The translations under genes and the position numbers were made by a program. A model generated the notes under the pieces. That model made no database searches. It was not told the DNA's origin and saw only the letters and a list, made by a program, of their open reading frames with translations. A stretch of DNA of 64,000 nt from an uncultured Bacilli bacterium (GTDB lineage: Bacteria; Bacillota_I; Bacilli_A; RF39; UBA660): the NCBI GenBank assembly GCA_949841325.1, contig CATKZK010000001.1, positions 4,733 through 68,732 on the forward strand, given 5' to 3'. Position 1 is the first letter of the stretch; every line of letters begins with the position of its first letter. Positions 5,312-21,626 of the stretch are shown here, piece by piece.

Positions 5312-5416
5312 TGTGTTTTTTTTTGAGAAAATCTGTAAATGTTACTTCTTTTAAGACAAACGTTGATACTTTTTCTGTTAATATTCATAGATTATACTAG
5401 AAAGGAAAGTGAAAAA

Positions 5417-6340
5417 ATGAATAATTGTCAATGTGGAAGATGTAATTCATGTTGCAATCCAAAACAAGGGCCGACAGGACCAACAGGAGCAAGAGGTGCT
5501 ACGGGTGCAACAGGCGCTACAGGATCAATCGGAGCAACAGGACCACAAGGAATTCAAGGACTTCAAGGAGTTCCAGGAGTAATGGGTGCAACAGGGCCAC
5601 AAGGAATTCAAGGTATTCAAGGGCCAACAGGACCAGTTGGACCAATTGGAGCAACAGGAGAAATCGGAGCAACAGGAGCAACGGGTGCAACAGGCGCAAC
5701 GGGAGCCACAGGAGAAGCAGGACCACAAGGAGTCCAAGGGCCAACAGGAGCCACTGGAGCAACAGGAGCAACAGGAGCCACTGGATTACAAGGAATCCAA
5801 GGTATTCAAGGACCAACAGGACCACAAGGTGAAGCTGGAGAAATAGGACCAGCTGGACCAACGGGAGCAACAGGAGCAACAGGAGCTACTGGAGCAACAG
5901 GAGCTACTGGAGCAACAGGAAGTGCACCAAATTTAACCATTGGAACAGTAACAACAGGAGTAAATGCTGCAGCTACTATCACAGGAACATCACCTAATTT
6001 TGTTCTAAATCTAGTATTACCTCAAGGGCCAACAGGACCAACAGGAGCAACAGGATCAACAGGAGCCACGGGTGCAACAGGAGCAACAGGTGCAAGTGAT
6101 ACAATCACAGTAAGAAATACAACAACTGGAGCTGCAGGAACCAATGCAACTGTAACCGATACTACAGGAAGTCCTAACCATATTTTAGACTTTGTCATTC
6201 CTCGTGGATATGATGGAGTAGATGGAGAAATTGGACCACAAGGAATCCAAGGTATTATTGGACCAACAGGACCAGTAGGTGCAACAGGAGCAACAGGTGC
6301 ATCTGGAAGATGTCGTTGCTGTAACAATGAAAATGAATAA
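5417..6340 (+). CDS. collagen-like triple-helix repeat protein with Cys-rich N- and C-terminal caps and two Thr-rich non-collagen insertions
   Basis: long runs of [12 protein letters not shown] (Gly-X-Thr/Gln) triplets; N-terminus [17 protein letters not shown]; C-terminus [11 protein letters not shown]; start chosen at the ATG at 5417, which has an AAAGGAAAG RBS. Confidence 0.85.
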
Positions 6341-14737: not shown

Positions 14738-15307
14738 ATGAAAGTAGAAGTAAAAGTTGGTGTTAGTAAAAAGCATGTCCATTTGACAGAAGAACTTTGG
14801 AATGCTTTATTTCCTAATAAAGAAATGGAGAAGAGAAACGATTTAAGTCAACCAGGGAAATTCGCGACAACGACAACAGTAAATGTAAGCATATTTGGTA
14901 AAGTCATTCAGGATGTACGTGTAGTAGGGCCTTTTTGTTCTTATAATCAATTCGAGATTTCAAATATCGAAGTAGGAGAGGATAAATCTCTTCCTGTTAG
15001 AAAAAGTGGCGATGTATTTAATTCTCCATCTTTTACAATCATGAGTGAGAATCGACAAGTTGAATGTATGGAAGGAACTATAAAAGCTCAAAATCATATT
15101 CATATAACGCCTGATCTTGCAGAGAAGTATCAATTAAAAGAGGATGAAAAAATTGCTTTCTTTACAAAAAGTAATGAAAGGGGTTATGCGTATATTAAAA
15201 TAAGCAATCCTGCTGAATTTGAACTTCATCTTGATGTAGAGGAAGCTTTGAAATATCAATTGAAAAATGGGGAAAGTGTCTATATTGAAGTAGAAGCAGG
15301 TGAGTGA
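14738..15307 (+). CDS. pduL: PduL-type phosphate acyltransferase
   Basis: two PduL repeats (VGVSKKHVHLT...; NHIHITPDLA), SQPGKF and RKSGD motifs. Confidence 0.7.
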   Translation: MKVEVKVGVSKKHVHLTEELWNALFPNKEMEKRNDLSQPGKFATTTTVNVSIFGKVIQDVRVVGPFCSYNQFEISNIEVGEDKSLPVRKSGDVFNSPSFTIMSENRQVECMEGTIKAQNHIHITPDLAEKYQLKEDEKIAFFTKSNERGYAYIKISNPAEFELHLDVEEALKYQLKNGESVYIEVEAGE

Positions 15308-16310
15308 AAATATGGGTTTTAAAATAGGAAATATTGAAATAAAAAATCGTATTGTTTTAGCCCCTATGGCAGGAATAAGCAATACCTCATATCGTAAAAT
15401 CATTAAAGAAATGGGAGCAGGCCTTATTTTTGCTGAAATGGTGAGTGATAAAGCGATTATGTATGGGAATAAAAAAACAATGGATTTACTTAAGATGAGT
15501 GAAAGTGAACGTCCTATTGCGCAACAAATATTTGGAAGTGATGTTGAATCATTTGTCAGTGCTGCGAAAACGATACTACAAGAGATGAAACCAGATATCA
15601 TTGATATTAATATGGGATGTCCTGTACCTAAAATCGCGATTAAGTCTCAAGCAGGAGCCTCTCTTCTTAAAAATCCCAAAAAGATATACGAGATTGTCAA
15701 AGCAGTTAAGGATGCTGTCTCTGTTCCTGTTACCGTTAAGATTAGAAGTGGATGGGATGCTAATAGTATTAATGCAAAAGAAGTAGCGTTAGAAGTCGAA
15801 AGAGCAGGTGCCAGTGCAATTACTGTACACGGAAGAACGAGGGCACAAGGATATTCGGGAAAAGCGAATTGGGATATCATTAAAGAAGTAAAAGAGGCAG
15901 TTTCTATTCCTGTTATAGGGAATGGGGATGTAACGGACTGCTTTCTTGCTAAAAAGATGCTTGAGGAAACGGGATGTGATGCTGTCATGATTGGAAGAGG
16001 AGTGCTTGGAAATCCTTGGTTAATTAAAGAGTGTATAGATTATTTAGAAGATGGAAAACTTCCTGTGCCTAAAAACGCTGTTGAAAAGATTGAAATGCTA
16101 AAAAGACATTTTAGTCTACTTGTAGAAGATAAGGGAGAAAAAGTAGCTCTTTTAGAAATTCGTATGCATGCCTTATGGTATATAAAAGGTCTTCCAGGAA
16201 ATGCAGCAATAAAAAATGAAATTTGTGCTTCTAAATCAGTAGATGAATTATTTAATATTTTAGAAAATTACCTTTTAACATTAAAGGATCAAAAAGAAAA
16301 AGACAACTAG
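15300..16310 (+). CDS. dusB: tRNA-dihydrouridine synthase
   Basis: LAPMAGISN, INMGCPVPKI and HGRTRAQ motifs; likely ATG start at 15312. Confidence 0.85.
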   Translation: MSENMGFKIGNIEIKNRIVLAPMAGISNTSYRKIIKEMGAGLIFAEMVSDKAIMYGNKKTMDLLKMSESERPIAQQIFGSDVESFVSAAKTILQEMKPDIIDINMGCPVPKIAIKSQAGASLLKNPKKIYEIVKAVKDAVSVPVTVKIRSGWDANSINAKEVALEVERAGASAITVHGRTRAQGYSGKANWDIIKEVKEAVSIPVIGNGDVTDCFLAKKMLEETGCDAVMIGRGVLGNPWLIKECIDYLEDGKLPVPKNAVEKIEMLKRHFSLLVEDKGEKVALLEIRMHALWYIKGLPGNAAIKNEICASKSVDELFNILENYLLTLKDQKEKDN

Positions 16311-16378
16311 GAGTAAGTGTTGCCTTTTTTGTTTCTATTAAATAAATGAATTCATTTCCTAAATGAGAAAAAAAGGAC

Positions 16379-16407
16379 TTGTAAAAACAAGTGAAATAAC
16401 ATAAAAT
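16379..16407 (+). promoter_or_regulatory. candidate sigma-A promoter for a short (+) transcript (TTGTAA-17-TAAAAT)
   Basis: hexamers with 17-bp spacing; a terminator lies about 45 nt downstream. Confidence 0.3.
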
Positions 16408-16413
16408 ATAAGT

Positions 16414-16477
16414 AGGAACACACATTTTGTGAGTGCCTAAGTTTTTTAGACTACCCAACAAGGTAGTTTTTTTACAT
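16414..16477 (+). ncRNA. candidate ~65-nt antisense sRNA (putative type I antitoxin)
   Basis: bracketed by the promoter above and the intrinsic terminator at 16449-16477; its 3' end overlaps the 3' end of the convergent small-peptide gene. Confidence 0.3.
16449..16477 (+). terminator. rho-independent terminator
   Basis: ACTACC-caacaa-GGTAGT followed by a T7 run. Confidence 0.65.
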
Positions 16478-16549
16478 TAAATGTAGGATAACCACAATTA
16501 ACATAAAAATAATAGTTAATAAAGAGGATATAAGAATATCTTTCTTCAT
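16472..16549 (-). CDS. 25-aa hydrophobic peptide MKKDILISSLLTIIFMLIVVILHLM (candidate type I toxin)
   Basis: strong GGAGGTGG RBS 6 nt upstream of the ATG; single TM helix with a KK N-terminus; missing from the supplied ORF track. Confidence 0.35.
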   Translation of the reverse strand: MKKDILISSLLTIIFMLIVVILHLM

Positions 16550-16749
16550 CAAACCACCTCCATTTTGTCAACTTGTAATGAATTAAATCCAAAACCCCCT
16601 GACGAAATGGCAACTACAAAAAACATATGTTCCTACTTCTTATATACACATAAAAAAGCTTGATTACTCGTGAGTGAGTGAAATTATTTAGAAAATTGTT
16701 CATAAATAGTAAATTATGAACATAAAATTATGGAAAACACTAAAAAGAG

Positions 16750-16865: not shown

Positions 16866-17453
16866 GTGGCAAAAGAAGTCGTTAAGAAGATTAAATTACA
16901 AATTCCTGCTGGAAAAGCAACACCAGCTCCACCAGTTGGTACAGTTTTAGGACCTGCAGGGATTAATTTACAAGAGTTCTGTACAAAATATAATGACGCA
17001 ACAAGAGATAAAATGGGGGATATTGTCCCAGTAGAAATCTCAGTTTATGAAGATAGAACTTTTGATTTTATCCTTAAAACTCCACCAACAGCAGAATTAA
17101 TCAAGAAGTATGCTAAGATTAAATCTGGATCTAAAAAAGGTGCTCACGAAATTGTAGCAACTTTATCAAAAGATGATGTAAAAGCGATTGCTGAAATCAA
17201 GCTACCAGATTTAAATGCCTATAATGTTGAAGCTGCTATGGATATTGTAGCAGGAACTGCTAGAAATATGGGAGTTGCAATTAAGGGAATGAATGATGCG
17301 GAGTTAGCTGAAGAAGCAGCTCAAGCGGCAGAAGCTGAAAAAGAAGCAGAGAAACGTGAAGCTAAATTAGAAGCAATGGAAGAATCTGCTAAAGAAGAAG
17401 CAACTGAAGTTGAAGTCATTACTGAAAAAGCAGCTGACGAAACTGAAGAATAA
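16866..17453 (+). CDS. rplK: 50S ribosomal protein L11 with an unusual ~55-aa Ala/Glu-rich C-terminal extension
   Basis: L11 core ([23 protein letters not shown]...); probable GTG start at 16866 after an AAAGGAG RBS; the tail [27 protein letters not shown]... is absent from canonical L11. Confidence 0.9.
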
Positions 17454-17501
17454 AATAAGTAAAATTATATCCGCTAATAAACCACGATTGGAGGTATAGA
17501 A

Positions 17502-18200
17502 ATGAGAAAGTCAGGAAAGAAATATGTGGAAGCTTCTAAAAAAGTTGAAAAGAATAAAAACTATTCTTTAGTAGAAGCAATTAAGTTAGCTAAAGAGACA
17601 AGCATTACTAAATTTGATAGTTCTGTTGAGTTAGCAGTAAAACTTAATATCGACACGAAGAAAGCTGATCAACAATTAAGAGGTTCTCTTGTATTACCTA
17701 ATGGTAATGGTAAAACAAAAAGAATTTTAGTTTTAGCAAAGGGAGCTCAAGCTGAAGCAGCAAAGAACGCTGGTGCAGATTATGTTGGTGAACAAGAAAT
17801 GATTGATAAAATCGCGAATGAAAATTGGTTTGATTTCGATTGTTTAATTGCAACGCCAGAAATGATGCCTGCTTTAGGAAAAATTGGTAAAATTTTAGGA
17901 CCAAAAGGACTAATGCCAAATCCTAAGACAGGAACAGTAACACCTACGCCTGAGCGTGCTGTTGAAGACGTAAAAAAAGGAATGATCGAATATCGTGCAG
18001 ATGCTTATGGAAATATCCATTGCTCTGTTGGTAAAGTATCTTTCGATGATAAAGCTTTATTAGAAAATATTCAATATGTTCTTACAACTTTAGTGAGAGT
18101 AAAACCCGCTACAGTAAAAGGAAAATATATTAAGAATATTTCTGTTTCAACAACTATGGGTCCTGGAATCCATGTTGACCAAGAAACAGTTGACATGTAA
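17502..18200 (+). CDS. rplA: 50S ribosomal protein L1
   Basis: typical L1 sequence throughout, 232 aa. Confidence 0.95.
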   Translation: MRKSGKKYVEASKKVEKNKNYSLVEAIKLAKETSITKFDSSVELAVKLNIDTKKADQQLRGSLVLPNGNGKTKRILVLAKGAQAEAAKNAGADYVGEQEMIDKIANENWFDFDCLIATPEMMPALGKIGKILGPKGLMPNPKTGTVTPTPERAVEDVKKGMIEYRADAYGNIHCSVGKVSFDDKALLENIQYVLTTLVRVKPATVKGKYIKNISVSTTMGPGIHVDQETVDM

Positions 18201-18214
18201 TAAAAACATGTGTT

Positions 18215-18358
18215 ATATTAATTGAAATAAAAAACGAGTACCGAAGACAGTAGGGGACAACATTGTCTTAATTATCCTACCGAGGGAGAGTTATATTCTT
18301 TTTAAAAGTATAGAACTTTCCTTTTGTGGAAAGTTTTTTATATAAAATAAGGAGGACA
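18215..18358 (+). promoter_or_regulatory. ribosomal protein L10 leader with attenuator hairpin
   Basis: ~145-nt untranslated leader ending in AACTTTCC-ttttgt-GGAAAGTT plus a T run, just upstream of the rplJ RBS. Confidence 0.45.
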
Positions 18359-18361
18359 TAT

Positions 18362-18859
18362 ATGGCAAGCGAGAAGATTCTTAATGCAAAAAAAGAAGTC
18401 GTAGCAGAAATTACAGATAAGGTAAAGAATTCTGAAAGTGTTATTCTTTTCCAATATGCTGAAAGTTCAGTTGCTGACATGCAAGAATTACGTAGAGACT
18501 TAAAAAAAGTCGACAGTGAAGTAAAAATCCATAAGAATACTCTTGTAAAAAGAGCCTTAGATGACTTGAACATTGATTTAGCAGAGTATCTAGAAGGACC
18601 AAATGCCATCGTTTTTGGTAAAACTTTATTAGAGCCTATTAAGGCAATTGATGAGTTTGCTAAAAAACACAATAATATTAAGCTTGTTGCTGGTATTATA
18701 AATGGCGAAGTTGTTACACTTGATACAATTAAAGAATATGCATCAATTCCATCTATGGAAGGATTACTTACAATGTTTGCTGGTGGATTGATAGAACACG
18801 TAAAAAATCTATCTATTGCACTTAATTTATATGCCGAAAAATTAGGTGAAGAAAATTAA
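18362..18859 (+). CDS. rplJ: 50S ribosomal protein L10
   Basis: L10 family sequence; start at the ATG after AAGGAGGA. Confidence 0.9.
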   Translation: MASEKILNAKKEVVAEITDKVKNSESVILFQYAESSVADMQELRRDLKKVDSEVKIHKNTLVKRALDDLNIDLAEYLEGPNAIVFGKTLLEPIKAIDEFAKKHNNIKLVAGIINGEVVTLDTIKEYASIPSMEGLLTMFAGGLIEHVKNLSIALNLYAEKLGEEN

Positions 18860-18874
18860 TAGGAGGAGATTATA

Positions 18875-19243
18875 ATGGCAAAATTATCTACAAATGAAAT
18901 TATTGACGCAATTAGTGAAATGACTATTTTAGAGGTTAAAGATCTAGTTGATGCAATGAAAGAAAAATTTAATGTTGACCCTAGTGCTGTTGCTGTAGCA
19001 GCTGCACCTGCTGCAGGAGCTGGAGCTGAAGAATCAAGCACAAAAACTGTTGTATTAAAAGATGCTGGAGCATCTAAGATTGCAGTTATCAAAGTGGTTC
19101 GTGAAATTACTGGTCTAGGATTAGTAGAAGCGAAGGCTTTGGCTGATAATGGTGGAAACATTAAAGAAAACGTTTCTGCTGATGAAGCAAATGAAATTAA
19201 AGCTAAATTAGAAGAAGCAGGAGCTACTGTAGAATTAGCTTAA
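18875..19243 (+). CDS. rplL: 50S ribosomal protein L7/L12
   Basis: Ala-rich hinge followed by the conserved C-terminal domain ([19 protein letters not shown]). Confidence 0.95.
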
Positions 19244-19249
19244 TACGAA

Positions 19250-19274
19250 AGACTCACATTGGTGAGTTTTTTTG
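19250..19274 (+). terminator. rho-independent terminator after rplL
   Basis: GACTCAC-attg-GTGAGT followed by a T7 run. Confidence 0.7.
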
Positions 19275-19335
19275 TGGAAACCTTTACAAAAAACAAATAA
19301 AATGCTAGGATAGGGCGACGAAGGGGCAAGAAAGT

Positions 19336-20106
19336 ATGAAAATAGAACTGATTGATGGAAAGACCGCTGTTGTTTTTGAGAATATAGGAGAGCATTGTAT
19401 CATCAAAAATAGTGATGGAGCCATGGTTGTCCGAAATGAAAAAATGGGAATGACAATTACGATGAATCCGATAGTTAATGCTCAAGAATCAATTGAACAG
19501 ATAAATAAGGCAACAGAAAACTTCATGGAAGTTTCAAAAGAAGAAATAATAAAGATATGTGATACTTGGTTTAAACTGTTTGAAGATATATTTGAAAGTT
19601 ATTATCTCTTGTCAGAAGAGACATATAACCAATCAAAAATATATATAAAATTTATAACAGATGAAGACAAATACGAAAAAATAGCAATAAGGATGTCTTT
19701 AGAGGAAGAAGAAAGCCAATATAGTATGCAACTTAGAATTCCTGATTGTAATATAGGAGCATATCTAATGCTTAAAGTTTTTTCCTTTCTGCAAGAAAGT
19801 TTTGAAGAAGAATTCACATTAGAAGAGGGAGAATATATTGCTACAGTCGATTCAGTTGAACGCGTGATTTTGCATATTCAAGATGAGTATTATGGCTTCA
19901 AACAATTGATGATGATTCTTTATGCAAGTTGCCTTAATTCCCTACAAGTTGATAGAAGTCAAGCATGCTTTATTCTTATGAATTGTCGTGAATTGATAAA
20001 GAGTCAGACGATTGGAATTTCTTTTAGAGAAGATATCGAAAATGCTATAAATCACCAAAAACAGTTAAAGGAAAAAATAAAACAACTTTATTTAAAAGAA
20101 AACTAA
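19336..20106 (+). CDS. hypothetical protein (acidic, 256 aa)
   Basis: ORF with AAGGGG RBS; sits where rpoB/rpoC lie in most Firmicutes. Confidence 0.45.
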   Translation: MKIELIDGKTAVVFENIGEHCIIKNSDGAMVVRNEKMGMTITMNPIVNAQESIEQINKATENFMEVSKEEIIKICDTWFKLFEDIFESYYLLSEETYNQSKIYIKFITDEDKYEKIAIRMSLEEEESQYSMQLRIPDCNIGAYLMLKVFSFLQESFEEEFTLEEGEYIATVDSVERVILHIQDEYYGFKQLMMILYASCLNSLQVDRSQACFILMNCRELIKSQTIGISFREDIENAINHQKQLKEKIKQLYLKEN

Positions 20107-20190
20107 TTGCTAAAGAGAATGGATAATTGATTCTCTTTCTTTTGTTTACAATGCTTGTAAACCTTGTTAAAATAAAAGTAATAATAGGAA

Positions 20191-20550
20191 GTGATCTGTT
20201 TGAAAAAAATGATGTTGGCTTGGATGTTCTTAGTTGTCCTTTTAGTTGGAGGATTGTTGTTTATTGGTGTGCGATTTAAAGATTCGATTCGCGAGTATGA
20301 AATTTTAGAAATTGATATGAATGAATCAGCGAATGCCTTTTTAAAATTGAGAGAAATTAACCTTAATCCTGGAGAAAGTATGAAAATATCCGCTAATGAA
20401 TTGATAGAAAGTGGTCTTTTAAAGTCAATGGAGGTAGGAAGTGATACTTGTGAGGGCTATGTTTTTGTGAAAAAACAGGGCAAAAATATGAATATAGAAT
20501 CGAAGATAAAATGCTCTCAGTATACTTCTTTGGAATACGAAGAAGAGTAA
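20191..20550 (+). CDS. hypothetical membrane-anchored or secreted protein
   Basis: N-terminal TM/signal stretch, 119 aa. Confidence 0.4.
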   Translation: MICLKKMMLAWMFLVVLLVGGLLFIGVRFKDSIREYEILEIDMNESANAFLKLREINLNPGESMKISANELIESGLLKSMEVGSDTCEGYVFVKKQGKNMNIESKIKCSQYTSLEYEEE

Positions 20551-20719
20551 ATACATATAATAGGTAGTAAACAGATGTAAAAATGCGTTTTATATATTGA
20601 CTTTTTAAGAAATGATTGATATATTATAAGCGCGTTTGAAATTAGGTTCTGCTTAGGTGGAACCTAGTTTTAAGGGGAATTTGATACACCGGGAAGTGTG
20701 TATATAGAAAGGAAATGTT

Positions 20720-21133
20720 ATGACGACTATAAACCAATTAGTAAGAAAGAAAAGAGCTAAGAAAACTCGTAAGGGAAAAAGTCCAGTATTAAATGTTGGA
20801 TTTAACTCAATGGAAAGAAAAGCTACGAAGACTGACCATCCACAAATGCGTGGTGTTTGTACTCGTGTAGGAACAAAGACACCAAAGAAACCTAACTCAG
20901 CTTTGCGTAAATATGCTCGTGTACGTCTATCAAATGGCCGTGAAGTCGATACATACATTCCAGGAGAAGGACATAACTTACAAGAACATAGTGTTGTACT
21001 TATTCGTGGAGGACGTGTTAAAGACTTAATCGGTGTTCGTTATCATGTAATTCGTGGTGCATTAGATACACAAGGTGTTAATGAACGTAAAAAAGGTAGA
21101 AGTAAATATGGTACAAAGAAACCTAAAAATTAA
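20720..21133 (+). CDS. rpsL: 30S ribosomal protein S12
   Basis: canonical S12 sequence ([11 protein letters not shown]...[10 protein letters not shown]). Confidence 0.95.
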
Positions 21134-21158
21134 AAATATATAAGGAGGAAAGAAAAAT

Positions 21159-21626
21159 ATGCGTAAAAGACGTGCTGAAAAGCGTGACGTTTTACCAGAT
21201 CCTATATATAAATCAAAAGTTGTTACGAAATTAATTAACACCATTATGAAAGATGGAAAAAAGGGAACAGCAGAAAAGATTTTATATGGGGCATTTGATA
21301 TCGTTCGTGAAAAATTGAACGAAAATCCAATGGACGTATACACTCGTGCGCTTGAAAATATTAAACCAGTGTTAGAAGTAAAATCTCGTCGTGTAGGTGG
21401 AGCGAATGTTCAAGTTCCAATCGAAGTAAGCGAAGAGAGAAGCCAAGCACTTGCATTGCGCTGGTTAGTAAATTATGCTAGAAATGGTCATGGAAGAACA
21501 ATGGCTGAAAAATTAGCAAATGAAATTATAGATGCAGCAAATGGAACAGGCGGAGCTGTTAAAAAACGTGAGGATACTCACAGAATGGCAGAAGCAAATA
21601 AAGCATTTGCTCATTATAGATGGTAG
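21159..21626 (+). CDS. rpsG: 30S ribosomal protein S7
   Basis: canonical S7 sequence. Confidence 0.95.

Follow-up and report, generated by a model that had tools for sequence, protein, structure and literature searches.

Known toxin-antitoxin (TA) systems of type I come from only a handful of phyla and in most cases from model species in culture (PMC12390103). The class is badly under-annotated, its toxins being tiny and unrelated in sequence, and specialists expect many unannotated loci in low-GC Gram-positives. Here we describe a candidate locus of this class in an uncultured, RF39-like gut bacterium of the Bacilli, found in a 64,000-nucleotide (nt) stretch of contig CATKZK010000001.1 (assembly GCA_949841325.1; hereafter the window). 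It occupies the 555-nt spacer between dusB (plus strand, start at 15300 or 15312, end at 16310) and rplK (plus strand, GTG start at 16866), and combines a 25-codon open reading frame (ORF) on the minus strand, set in an exceptionally stable predicted RNA fold, with a putative convergent RNA from the plus strand. We consider it a credible, as yet unproven, case of an undescribed chromosomal type I TA-like module, and put the chances of that reading at about even.

In txpA/RatA and bsrG/SR4 of Bacillus subtilis, as in the arrangement predicted here, a small hydrophobic peptide gene faces a convergent small RNA (sRNA) that has its own terminator and whose sequence complements the 3′ portion of the toxin mRNA; these systems are likewise chromosomal and located in variable regions, and duplex formation followed by RNase III cleavage is the proposed mode of action (PMC12390103). 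No sequence or profile similarity connects them to our locus, however, and their toxins of 38-59 amino acids (aa) contrast with the 25 aa of our peptide; the latter has no polar or charged C-terminal tail, the overlap between the two RNAs would fall wholly in the 3′ untranslated region (UTR), and a predicted helix joining the 5′ and 3′ ends of the mRNA is added. A preliminary description of this DNA had seen in the peptide the hallmark of the Fst, TxpA and BsrG toxins. Those toxins bear a charged C-terminal tail, which MKKDILISSLLTIIFMLIVVILHLM lacks, and no toxin-family profile matches it; the peptide is thus not a member of any of the three families, and the resemblance is a loose one. With par of the Enterococcus plasmid pAD1 (Fst; RNA I-RNA II) and the Fst/Ldr superfamily, the locus shares the predicted convergence of mRNA and sRNA, the presence of repeat motifs near both 5′ ends and a small single-helix peptide in a low-GC Gram-positive setting. 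In par, however, direct repeats make the 5′ ends of the two RNAs complementary, whereas the repeats described here are inverted and place the same sequence on both RNAs; the par terminator is shared and bidirectional, whereas the hairpin at 16448-16469 is a plus-strand terminator only; and no Fst profile matches the peptide.

The closest parallels to the predicted mRNA fold lie elsewhere. In hok/Sok/mok of plasmid R1 and aapA1/IsoA1 of Helicobacter pylori, the mRNA 5′ end is paired with the 3′ region and the Shine-Dalgarno (SD) sequence is sequestered (PMC8594479), and a possible upstream ORF (uORF) in our locus, ending in UGAUG on the toxin start, recalls mok. The antitoxins of those systems overlap the 5′ UTR or translation-initiation region, whereas the putative antitoxin here overlaps the 3′ UTR; moreover, the peptide matches neither Hok_Gef nor any other profile, and the host belongs to a Gram-positive-type lineage. 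Finally, the Ibs/Sib and LDR/QUAD loci of E. coli resemble ours in their tiny, almost wholly hydrophobic peptides (18-19 aa for Ibs) and in being recognisable as short repeated units in several contexts. They differ in that Sib is antisense to the entire ibs ORF, in the absence of sequence similarity and in that only two or three contexts were found here.

The peptide ORF announced in the preliminary description was confirmed at its position in the dusB-rplK spacer, together with its strong ribosome-binding site (Table 1). Its product is organised as had been proposed, the Lys-Lys N-terminus being part of a KKD motif and the single helix corresponding to a 21-residue hydrophobic stretch; at 25 aa it falls below 60 aa, as do type I toxins. 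Among all combinations of GGAGG with a start codon in the 64 kb, it is the sole ATG-initiated hydrophobic small ORF of at least 20 aa. The uORF (16626 to 16549) has a weak SD (AGGA, at short spacing) and its conservation is seen in identical alleles only; it may be a mok-like coupling ORF or have arisen by chance.

What sets the locus apart is the predicted fold of the RNA that would carry this ORF. The 289-nt minus-strand RNA (16650-16362), at 29% GC, has a minimum free energy (MFE) of -85.4 kcal/mol and a z-score of -7.47 against 200 dinucleotide shuffles. In a scan of both strands of the window in 289-nt windows at 97-nt steps (n = 1316) it ranked first, with the lowest MFE of all, and the runners-up fell in a collagen-like gene of 48-56% GC. 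Folding of the opposite strand gives a weaker structure (-58.0 kcal/mol, z -4.67), and the minus-strand advantage of 27 kcal/mol lies 3.4 standard deviations above the window-wide mean asymmetry. The RNA includes an 11-mer motif, AAGTAGGAACA, of which the 64 kb contain exactly two copies, at 16410-16420 (plus) and 16628-16638 (minus). The preliminary description had noted both copies and read them as marks of two related promoter regions. Both are indeed present; the repeat is longer than was described, however, the 11-mer being the core of a complementarity that forms an interrupted 31-base-pair (bp) helix between 16613-16645 and 16399-16434, its arms matching exactly over a core of 11 bp and being 82% complementary over 22 nt. 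It is better explained as a helix joining the 5′ and 3′ parts of one mRNA, a reading compatible with that of two promoters. In the predicted minus-strand RNA, this helix encloses the whole peptide ORF and pairs the mRNA 5′ end with the 3′ UTR. It comprises 26 Watson-Crick and five G-U pairs on the minus strand, and on the plus strand these five G-U pairs become A-C mismatches. Since the plus-strand fold is weaker and all five non-Watson-Crick pairs are G-U on the minus strand, structure at the RNA level on the strand of the ORF is favoured, although the strand asymmetry of these computed folds is only suggestive.

Inside the long helix, the translation start appears to be buried a second time. 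A 5′ UTR hairpin takes up the first two G of the SD (Table 1), the remaining SD bases and the AUG are predicted to pair with codons 9-13, and a further predicted hairpin takes in the 3′ half of the ORF. All transcript forms tried, with or without the 3′ arm of the long helix, gave the AUG a predicted probability of being unpaired of 0.0, and four of the five bases of GGAGG one of at most 0.23. The search descriptors of T1TAdb for type I toxin mRNAs are SD/anti-SD pairs, 5′-3′ long-distance interactions and terminator stem-loops (PMC8594479); in silico, both SD sequestration and a 5′-3′ interaction were found in the putative mRNA. A tiny hydrophobic ORF, a 5′ end paired to the 3′ region and a sequestered SD thus give the modelled RNA the likeness of a type I toxin mRNA. 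Within the 5′ UTR hairpin, positions 16570-16571 read AA in the window and in L191, and CG in JGI contigs L081, L091 and L092. With AA, the minus strand reads a perfect TTGACA a short way upstream of the SD; the predicted MFE differs by 2.5 kcal/mol between the two forms.

Could such a constellation have assembled by chance, in an AT-rich spacer with an SD-led small ORF, an inverted repeat and the terminator of dusB, none having a function of its own? Taken singly, promoter-like sites, inverted repeats and small ORFs each occur at non-negligible frequencies. Their coincidence within 290 nt, the rank of the fold among the 1316 windows, the confinement of both copies of the 11-mer to this locus and the near-identity of the segment in another genomic context nonetheless make this explanation very unlikely.

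That other context came to light when the distribution of the locus was examined. The window itself is identical to contig CASSNI010000003.1 of the NCBI metagenome-assembled genome (MAG) GCA_949443625.1. Beyond the species, scans of genomes and metagenomes covering two sets of 80 dusB loci of relatives recovered nothing similar to the locus or the peptide in any of the 160, of which 129, made up of 49 and 80, are from close relatives; the closest by dusB, at 73-81% identity, are uncultured gut MAGs labelled 'Bacilli/Tenericutes/Mycoplasma sp. CAG'. Absence from all 160 loci marks the locus as accessory. None of the 80 genome loci had rplK after dusB.

Within the species, three arrangements were recovered. 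In the first, dusB-locus-rplK, found in the window and in JGI 3300006217, the two sequences differ over 8 kb only at 16570-71 (CG in JGI versus AA). In the second, the locus adjoins a divergent gene for a 381-aa secreted protein, SufB and SSB (L092 and, from an independent assembly, L191); L092 matches the window up to 16658. L191 carries a distinct allele, B, with an I5V substitution (ATT to GTT), a synonymous GTG to GTA change and a 2-nt insertion that turns the TAA stop into TAG, an in-frame stop being kept. In the third, represented by at least six assemblies from Logan and ENA, the rplK flank is homologous only from 16640 onward, and a 2-kb cassette lies directly upstream of rplK in place of window positions 16495-16639 (L082:272-1956; also L083, L084 and L178). 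Encoded in it are an Abi_alpha protein and a PDDEXK nuclease of YhcG/DUF1016 type, the latter matching PADLOC candidate PDC-S02 at E = 3e-128. Upstream of the cassette lies a decayed copy of the locus (L082/L178), in which a 37-nt frameshifting deletion reduces the product to MRKNILWLSYI followed by a stop, the half with the SD and 5′ UTR is only about 80% identical, and the 5′ arm of the long helix and everything upstream of it are lost. Window positions 16369-16494, which hold the putative antitoxin promoter, sRNA and terminator, are in contrast 100% identical in L178 (L082 covers 16411-16494 only). Decay of the toxin first, with the antitoxin side kept, is the pattern expected of TA modules. 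In assembly ERZ13631974 the decayed copy (L178) occurs alongside an intact allele B (L191), so that at least two copies probably coexist in one genome and the locus is probably multi-copy. An accessory locus, probably multi-copy, located at rearrangement breakpoints and with a decayed allele beside a defence-type cassette fits an addiction- or defence-type module and does not fit a housekeeping small protein. From these sequences, the site upstream of rplKAJL has the appearance of a strain-variable, defence-island-like hotspot. All eight Logan contigs carrying SufB (L192-L199) break at nearly the same point inside the 381-aa gene beside the second copy, which suggests a repeat or polymorphism within that gene.

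The breakpoints also suggest a portable unit. Homology ends at 16658 (L092, L191) or 16640 (L082 type), short-read contigs of three samples end at 16421, and others start at 16629 (Logan) or 16604 (JGI). Should contigs stop k-1 bases into a repeat, with k = 31 for Logan and presumably 55 for JGI, the breaks at 16421, 16629 and 16604 would place the repeated unit at 16392-16658. A unit bounded by inverted repeats, both strands of which fold better than shuffles, which occurs in at least two contexts, whose right end coincides with the breakpoints and whose UTRs are conserved at least as well as the ORF, might instead be a non-coding structured RNA or a small repeat element, either recombination-prone or of the type of a miniature inverted-repeat transposable element (MITE), with the ORF incidental; at 31% GC, an open frame of 25 codons is by our own estimate no great rarity (about 0.13 per start). 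This account sits poorly with an SD of consensus sequence, ideally spaced to an ATG, at the centre of the fold, with the five G-U pairs and the 27 kcal/mol that favour the strand of the ORF, and with the in-frame stop retained in allele B although the stop codon itself is altered. Nor was a second copy found in the 64 kb, in 173 loci of relatives or in plasmid, phage and viral collections, or a target-site duplication seen. We regard it as unlikely. A MITE was rejected on the grounds of few copies, strand-asymmetric pairing (at five positions the helix relies on G-U pairs that exist on the minus strand alone) and no insertion-specific flanking duplication.

The same arms, about 190 bp apart and with contigs of several samples breaking in or near them, might also flank an invertible segment that flips the peptide gene or a promoter. 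The imperfection of the arms speaks against an inverton, as does the absence of an adjoining recombinase gene; the contig ends are offset from those expected of a core inversion and fit the repeat boundaries plus or minus k-1. Every contig spanning or entering the segment shows one orientation, the reverse not having been found in any of them, and the inverton was rejected for this reason as exceedingly improbable.

For a TA module, a counterpart to the peptide gene is expected on the plus strand. The preliminary description had proposed a promoter, a strong terminator and a convergent RNA of about 65 nt. The terminator proved real and is the only terminator-like site in the spacer (one found versus 0.2 expected); it stands just past the ORF stop, is of moderate strength only and works on the plus strand alone. 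The putative sRNA of about 63 nt that it would end is complementary to the 3′ part of the mRNA as claimed, although it would lie wholly within the 3′ UTR and not overlap just the tip of the mRNA. It folds at -16.7 kcal/mol (z -3.0). When co-folded with the mRNA, it is predicted to gain -54.7 kcal/mol and to push the 5′ end of the mRNA out of a helix worth about 17 kcal/mol. The 5′ ends of sRNA and mRNA are near-identical in sequence, since each would pair with one and the same 3′ arm. A second promoter-like site, TTTACA-16-CACAAT (16471-16498, plus), lies inside the 3′ end of the peptide ORF, antisense to the 5′ half of the ORF and the SD; the synonymous change of allele B (L191) turns its -10 from CACAAT into TACAAT. 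It could drive an alternative, 5′-overlapping antisense RNA, for which no terminator was found.

As for the putative mRNA, its start would be set by a -10-like region (TGTGTATATAAG) that is common to both genomic contexts up to about 16658-16668, the sequence differing farther upstream. No minus-strand terminator was found at the end of the peptide ORF, the 16448-16469 hairpin being flanked by A-runs on both sides on that strand; a toxin mRNA must therefore run on to about 16364, where a candidate terminator is followed by CCUUUUUUU.

In the mechanism that we propose, a minus-strand mRNA of about 250-290 nt, extending from about 16636-16650 to about 16364, would encode a 25-residue single-helix membrane peptide and would be kept from translation by two locks. 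The first would be the pairing of its extreme 5′ end with the 3′ UTR through the 31-bp long-distance helix; the second, the burial of SD and AUG in local hairpins, with the upstream anti-SD CCAUUU paired to part of the SD and the start codon to codons 9-11. As antitoxin would serve the convergent RNA of the plus strand, some 63 nt long (16414-16476), which matches the mRNA without a mispair from the stop codon to the 3′ arm; it would come from a weak promoter of its own or, just as well, be the 3′ UTR of dusB. Its binding would displace the mRNA 5′ end and create a long perfect duplex which, by analogy with txpA/RatA and bsrG/SR4, might be cut by RNase III.

Several observations weigh against a TA module. 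The peptide has no toxin family match among Pfam, NCBIfam or PADLOC profiles. MFE strand asymmetries as large as that seen here, in the opposite direction, are common in coding regions, and inverted repeats as large as this one are no rarity at the DNA level, ours being one of 12 similar ones in the AT-rich window by ungapped criteria; the repeat alone is therefore unremarkable, and it is the fold of the whole RNA that stands out. Although the promoter sequence at 16379-16407 is present as had been described, it matches the consensus no better than chance (five such sites in 700 nt versus 3.3 +/- 1.8 expected), its -35 hexamer TTGTAA falls inside the hairpin put forward as minus-strand terminator, and the terminator on the plus strand may be no more than that of dusB. 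On the other strand, no recognisable -35 and no convincing sigma-70 promoter were found for the mRNA, the -10-like TGTGTATATAAG having been missed by the consensus scan, and the terminator at 16392-16364 is weak, falling under the threshold of the terminator scan. The alleles are few and all near-identical, and both substitutions of allele B keep their predicted pairs by transitions only (A-U to G-U and G-U to A-U). Between alleles A and B, the 5′ UTR, identical in B and the window, is more conserved than the ORF, a pattern that does not point to selection on the peptide.

Some of these points would suit a genuine peptide gene of another kind, encoding a small membrane or secreted/signalling peptide from an mRNA that is strongly structured by chance, with the terminator belonging to dusB. 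The strong SD and ATG, the retention of the ORF in allele B and an antisense promoter not above chance all accord with such a gene, and pheromone precursors built of MKK and a hydrophobic stretch, like many orphan small membrane proteins, resemble the peptide. On the other hand, no partner gene adjoins it, whether a regulator of Rgg or other type or a transporter operon; its neighbours are dusB, rplK or the 381-aa secreted protein, which has no significant Pfam match (DUF3127 being sub-threshold). The translation lock, the multiple contexts and the decayed allele are moreover typical of toxin genes, and on balance we think a non-toxin peptide rather unlikely. A pheromone of SHP/Rgg type (RRNPP) in particular was rejected, no regulator of Rgg, PlcR or PrgX type being present among the neighbours (dusB, rplK, the 381-aa protein and YhcG/Abi_alpha). 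A type I TA module, as first put forward in the preliminary description, remains the best available interpretation, backed by the fold, the predicted sequestration of SD and AUG, the finding of two or more genomic contexts and the decayed allele with its intact antitoxin side, even though several details of that description were wrong or unsupported.

Homologues, the search for which had been suggested in that description, were found within the species only, where allele B keeps the ORF; outside it, profiles, blastn, nhmmer and tblastn returned none. The best Pfam match of the peptide was DUF3149, below the cut-off (E = 0.057), and an Rfam scan of the locus gave no match at permissive or gathering thresholds. 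Neither locus nor peptide has a second copy in the 64 kb by blastn, nhmmer or tblastn. Searches of plasmid and phage collections (tblastn, blastn) returned only short AT-rich chance matches, the peptide tblastn against plasmids being empty; two pattern scans of viral contigs gave no match to the locus, and an overlapping 55-aa frame, used as a proxy query against a protein database, gave none either. No credible analogous SD-led hydrophobic small ORF was found downstream of dusB in 49 relatives. One candidate after dusB, in L012, was rejected as it lies inside a 206-aa gene.

Should toxicity of the peptide be validated, the locus would represent a new toxin family from an uncultured gut lineage with reduced genomes, and mRNA-fold criteria would prove able to find such loci without homology; should the peptide be harmless, it would be one more unannotated small membrane protein. 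The predicted arrangement would be a regulatory variant in which the antitoxin and the mRNA 5′ end vie for the same 3′ arm, and the locus marks a strain-variable site occupied either by this module or by the PDC-S02/Abi_alpha defence cassette. In its fullest form, our reading would be of a new family of type I TA modules, carried by uncultured gut Bacilli of RF39-like kind and uniting traits known until now from separate systems, with a 5′-3′ lock in the style of hok and AapA1, possibly a mok-like uORF, a 3′-overlapping antitoxin in the style of txpA and bsrG whose 5′ end mimics that of the mRNA and competes for the same 3′ arm, and a role as marker of a recombination and defence-island hotspot by rplKAJL; this combination as a whole we hold to be decidedly unlikely.

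Table 1. Coordinates of the features of the locus in the window
Feature	Position	Strand	Remarks
Peptide ORF	16472-16549	minus	ATG at 16549, 25 codons plus TAA (16474-16472); encodes MKKDILISSLLTIIFMLIVVILHLM, putative toxin
Shine-Dalgarno sequence GGAGGTGG	16554-16561	minus	GGAGG-to-ATG spacing 7 nt
Upstream ORF MFFVVAISSGGFGFNSLQVDKMEVV	16549-16626	minus	UGA overlaps toxin AUG (UGAUG); own AUG inside long-distance helix
5′ UTR hairpin	16560-16610	minus	CCAUUU (16610-16605, anti-SD) pairs with AAAUGG, including the first two G of the SD
5′ arm of long-distance helix	16613-16645	minus	holds the inverted motif; probably first nucleotides of the mRNA
3′ arm of long-distance helix	16399-16434	minus	in the mRNA 3′ UTR; same DNA as 5′ part of putative plus-strand sRNA
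-10-like region TGTGTATATAAG	16639-16650	minus	putative; TATATA or TATAAG after TGTG, read from sequence
Candidate terminator	16364-16392	minus	putative; ACUUGU-UUUU-ACAAGU, then CCUUUUUUU; A-U rich stem
Promoter-like TTGTAA-17-TAAAAT	16379-16407	plus	9/12 consensus match; 100% conserved in L178, L185 and L189
Putative antisense sRNA, about 63 nt	16414-16476	plus	5′ hairpin and intrinsic terminator; complementary to toxin stop codon and 3′ UTR
Intrinsic terminator	stem 16448-16469, T7 16470-16476	plus	8 pairs, 3 of them G-C
Putative repeated/portable unit, 267 nt	16392-16658		segment common to different contexts; bounded by inverted repeat

Some other features of the window deserve mention. 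The gene order from rplK onward (16866-21500, also seen in L081) is unusual, in that no secE-nusG precedes rplK, and downstream of rplL come two genes without an assigned function (256 aa and 113 aa) and next rpsL-rpsG-fusA, with rpoB-rpoC missing from that interval; in the related species examined, dusB never adjoins rplK. Ribosomal protein L11 itself (16866-17453, plus) is 195 aa long, the usual length being about 141 aa, and is extended at the C-terminus by some 55 residues, among which Ala, Glu and Lys abound. The collagen-like gene noted in the MFE scan, where it gave the second most stable fold, is a 333-aa ORF (5339-6340, plus) made largely of Gly-X-Thr triplets (GATGATGATG...) with Cys-rich ends, and sits in an island of 48-56% GC in a genome of 31% GC. 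Rfam matches at gathering level in the window were the ssNA-helicase RNA RF03070 (28760-28808, minus, 47.3 bits) and the L10 leader RF00557 (18223-18349, plus, 77.5 bits).

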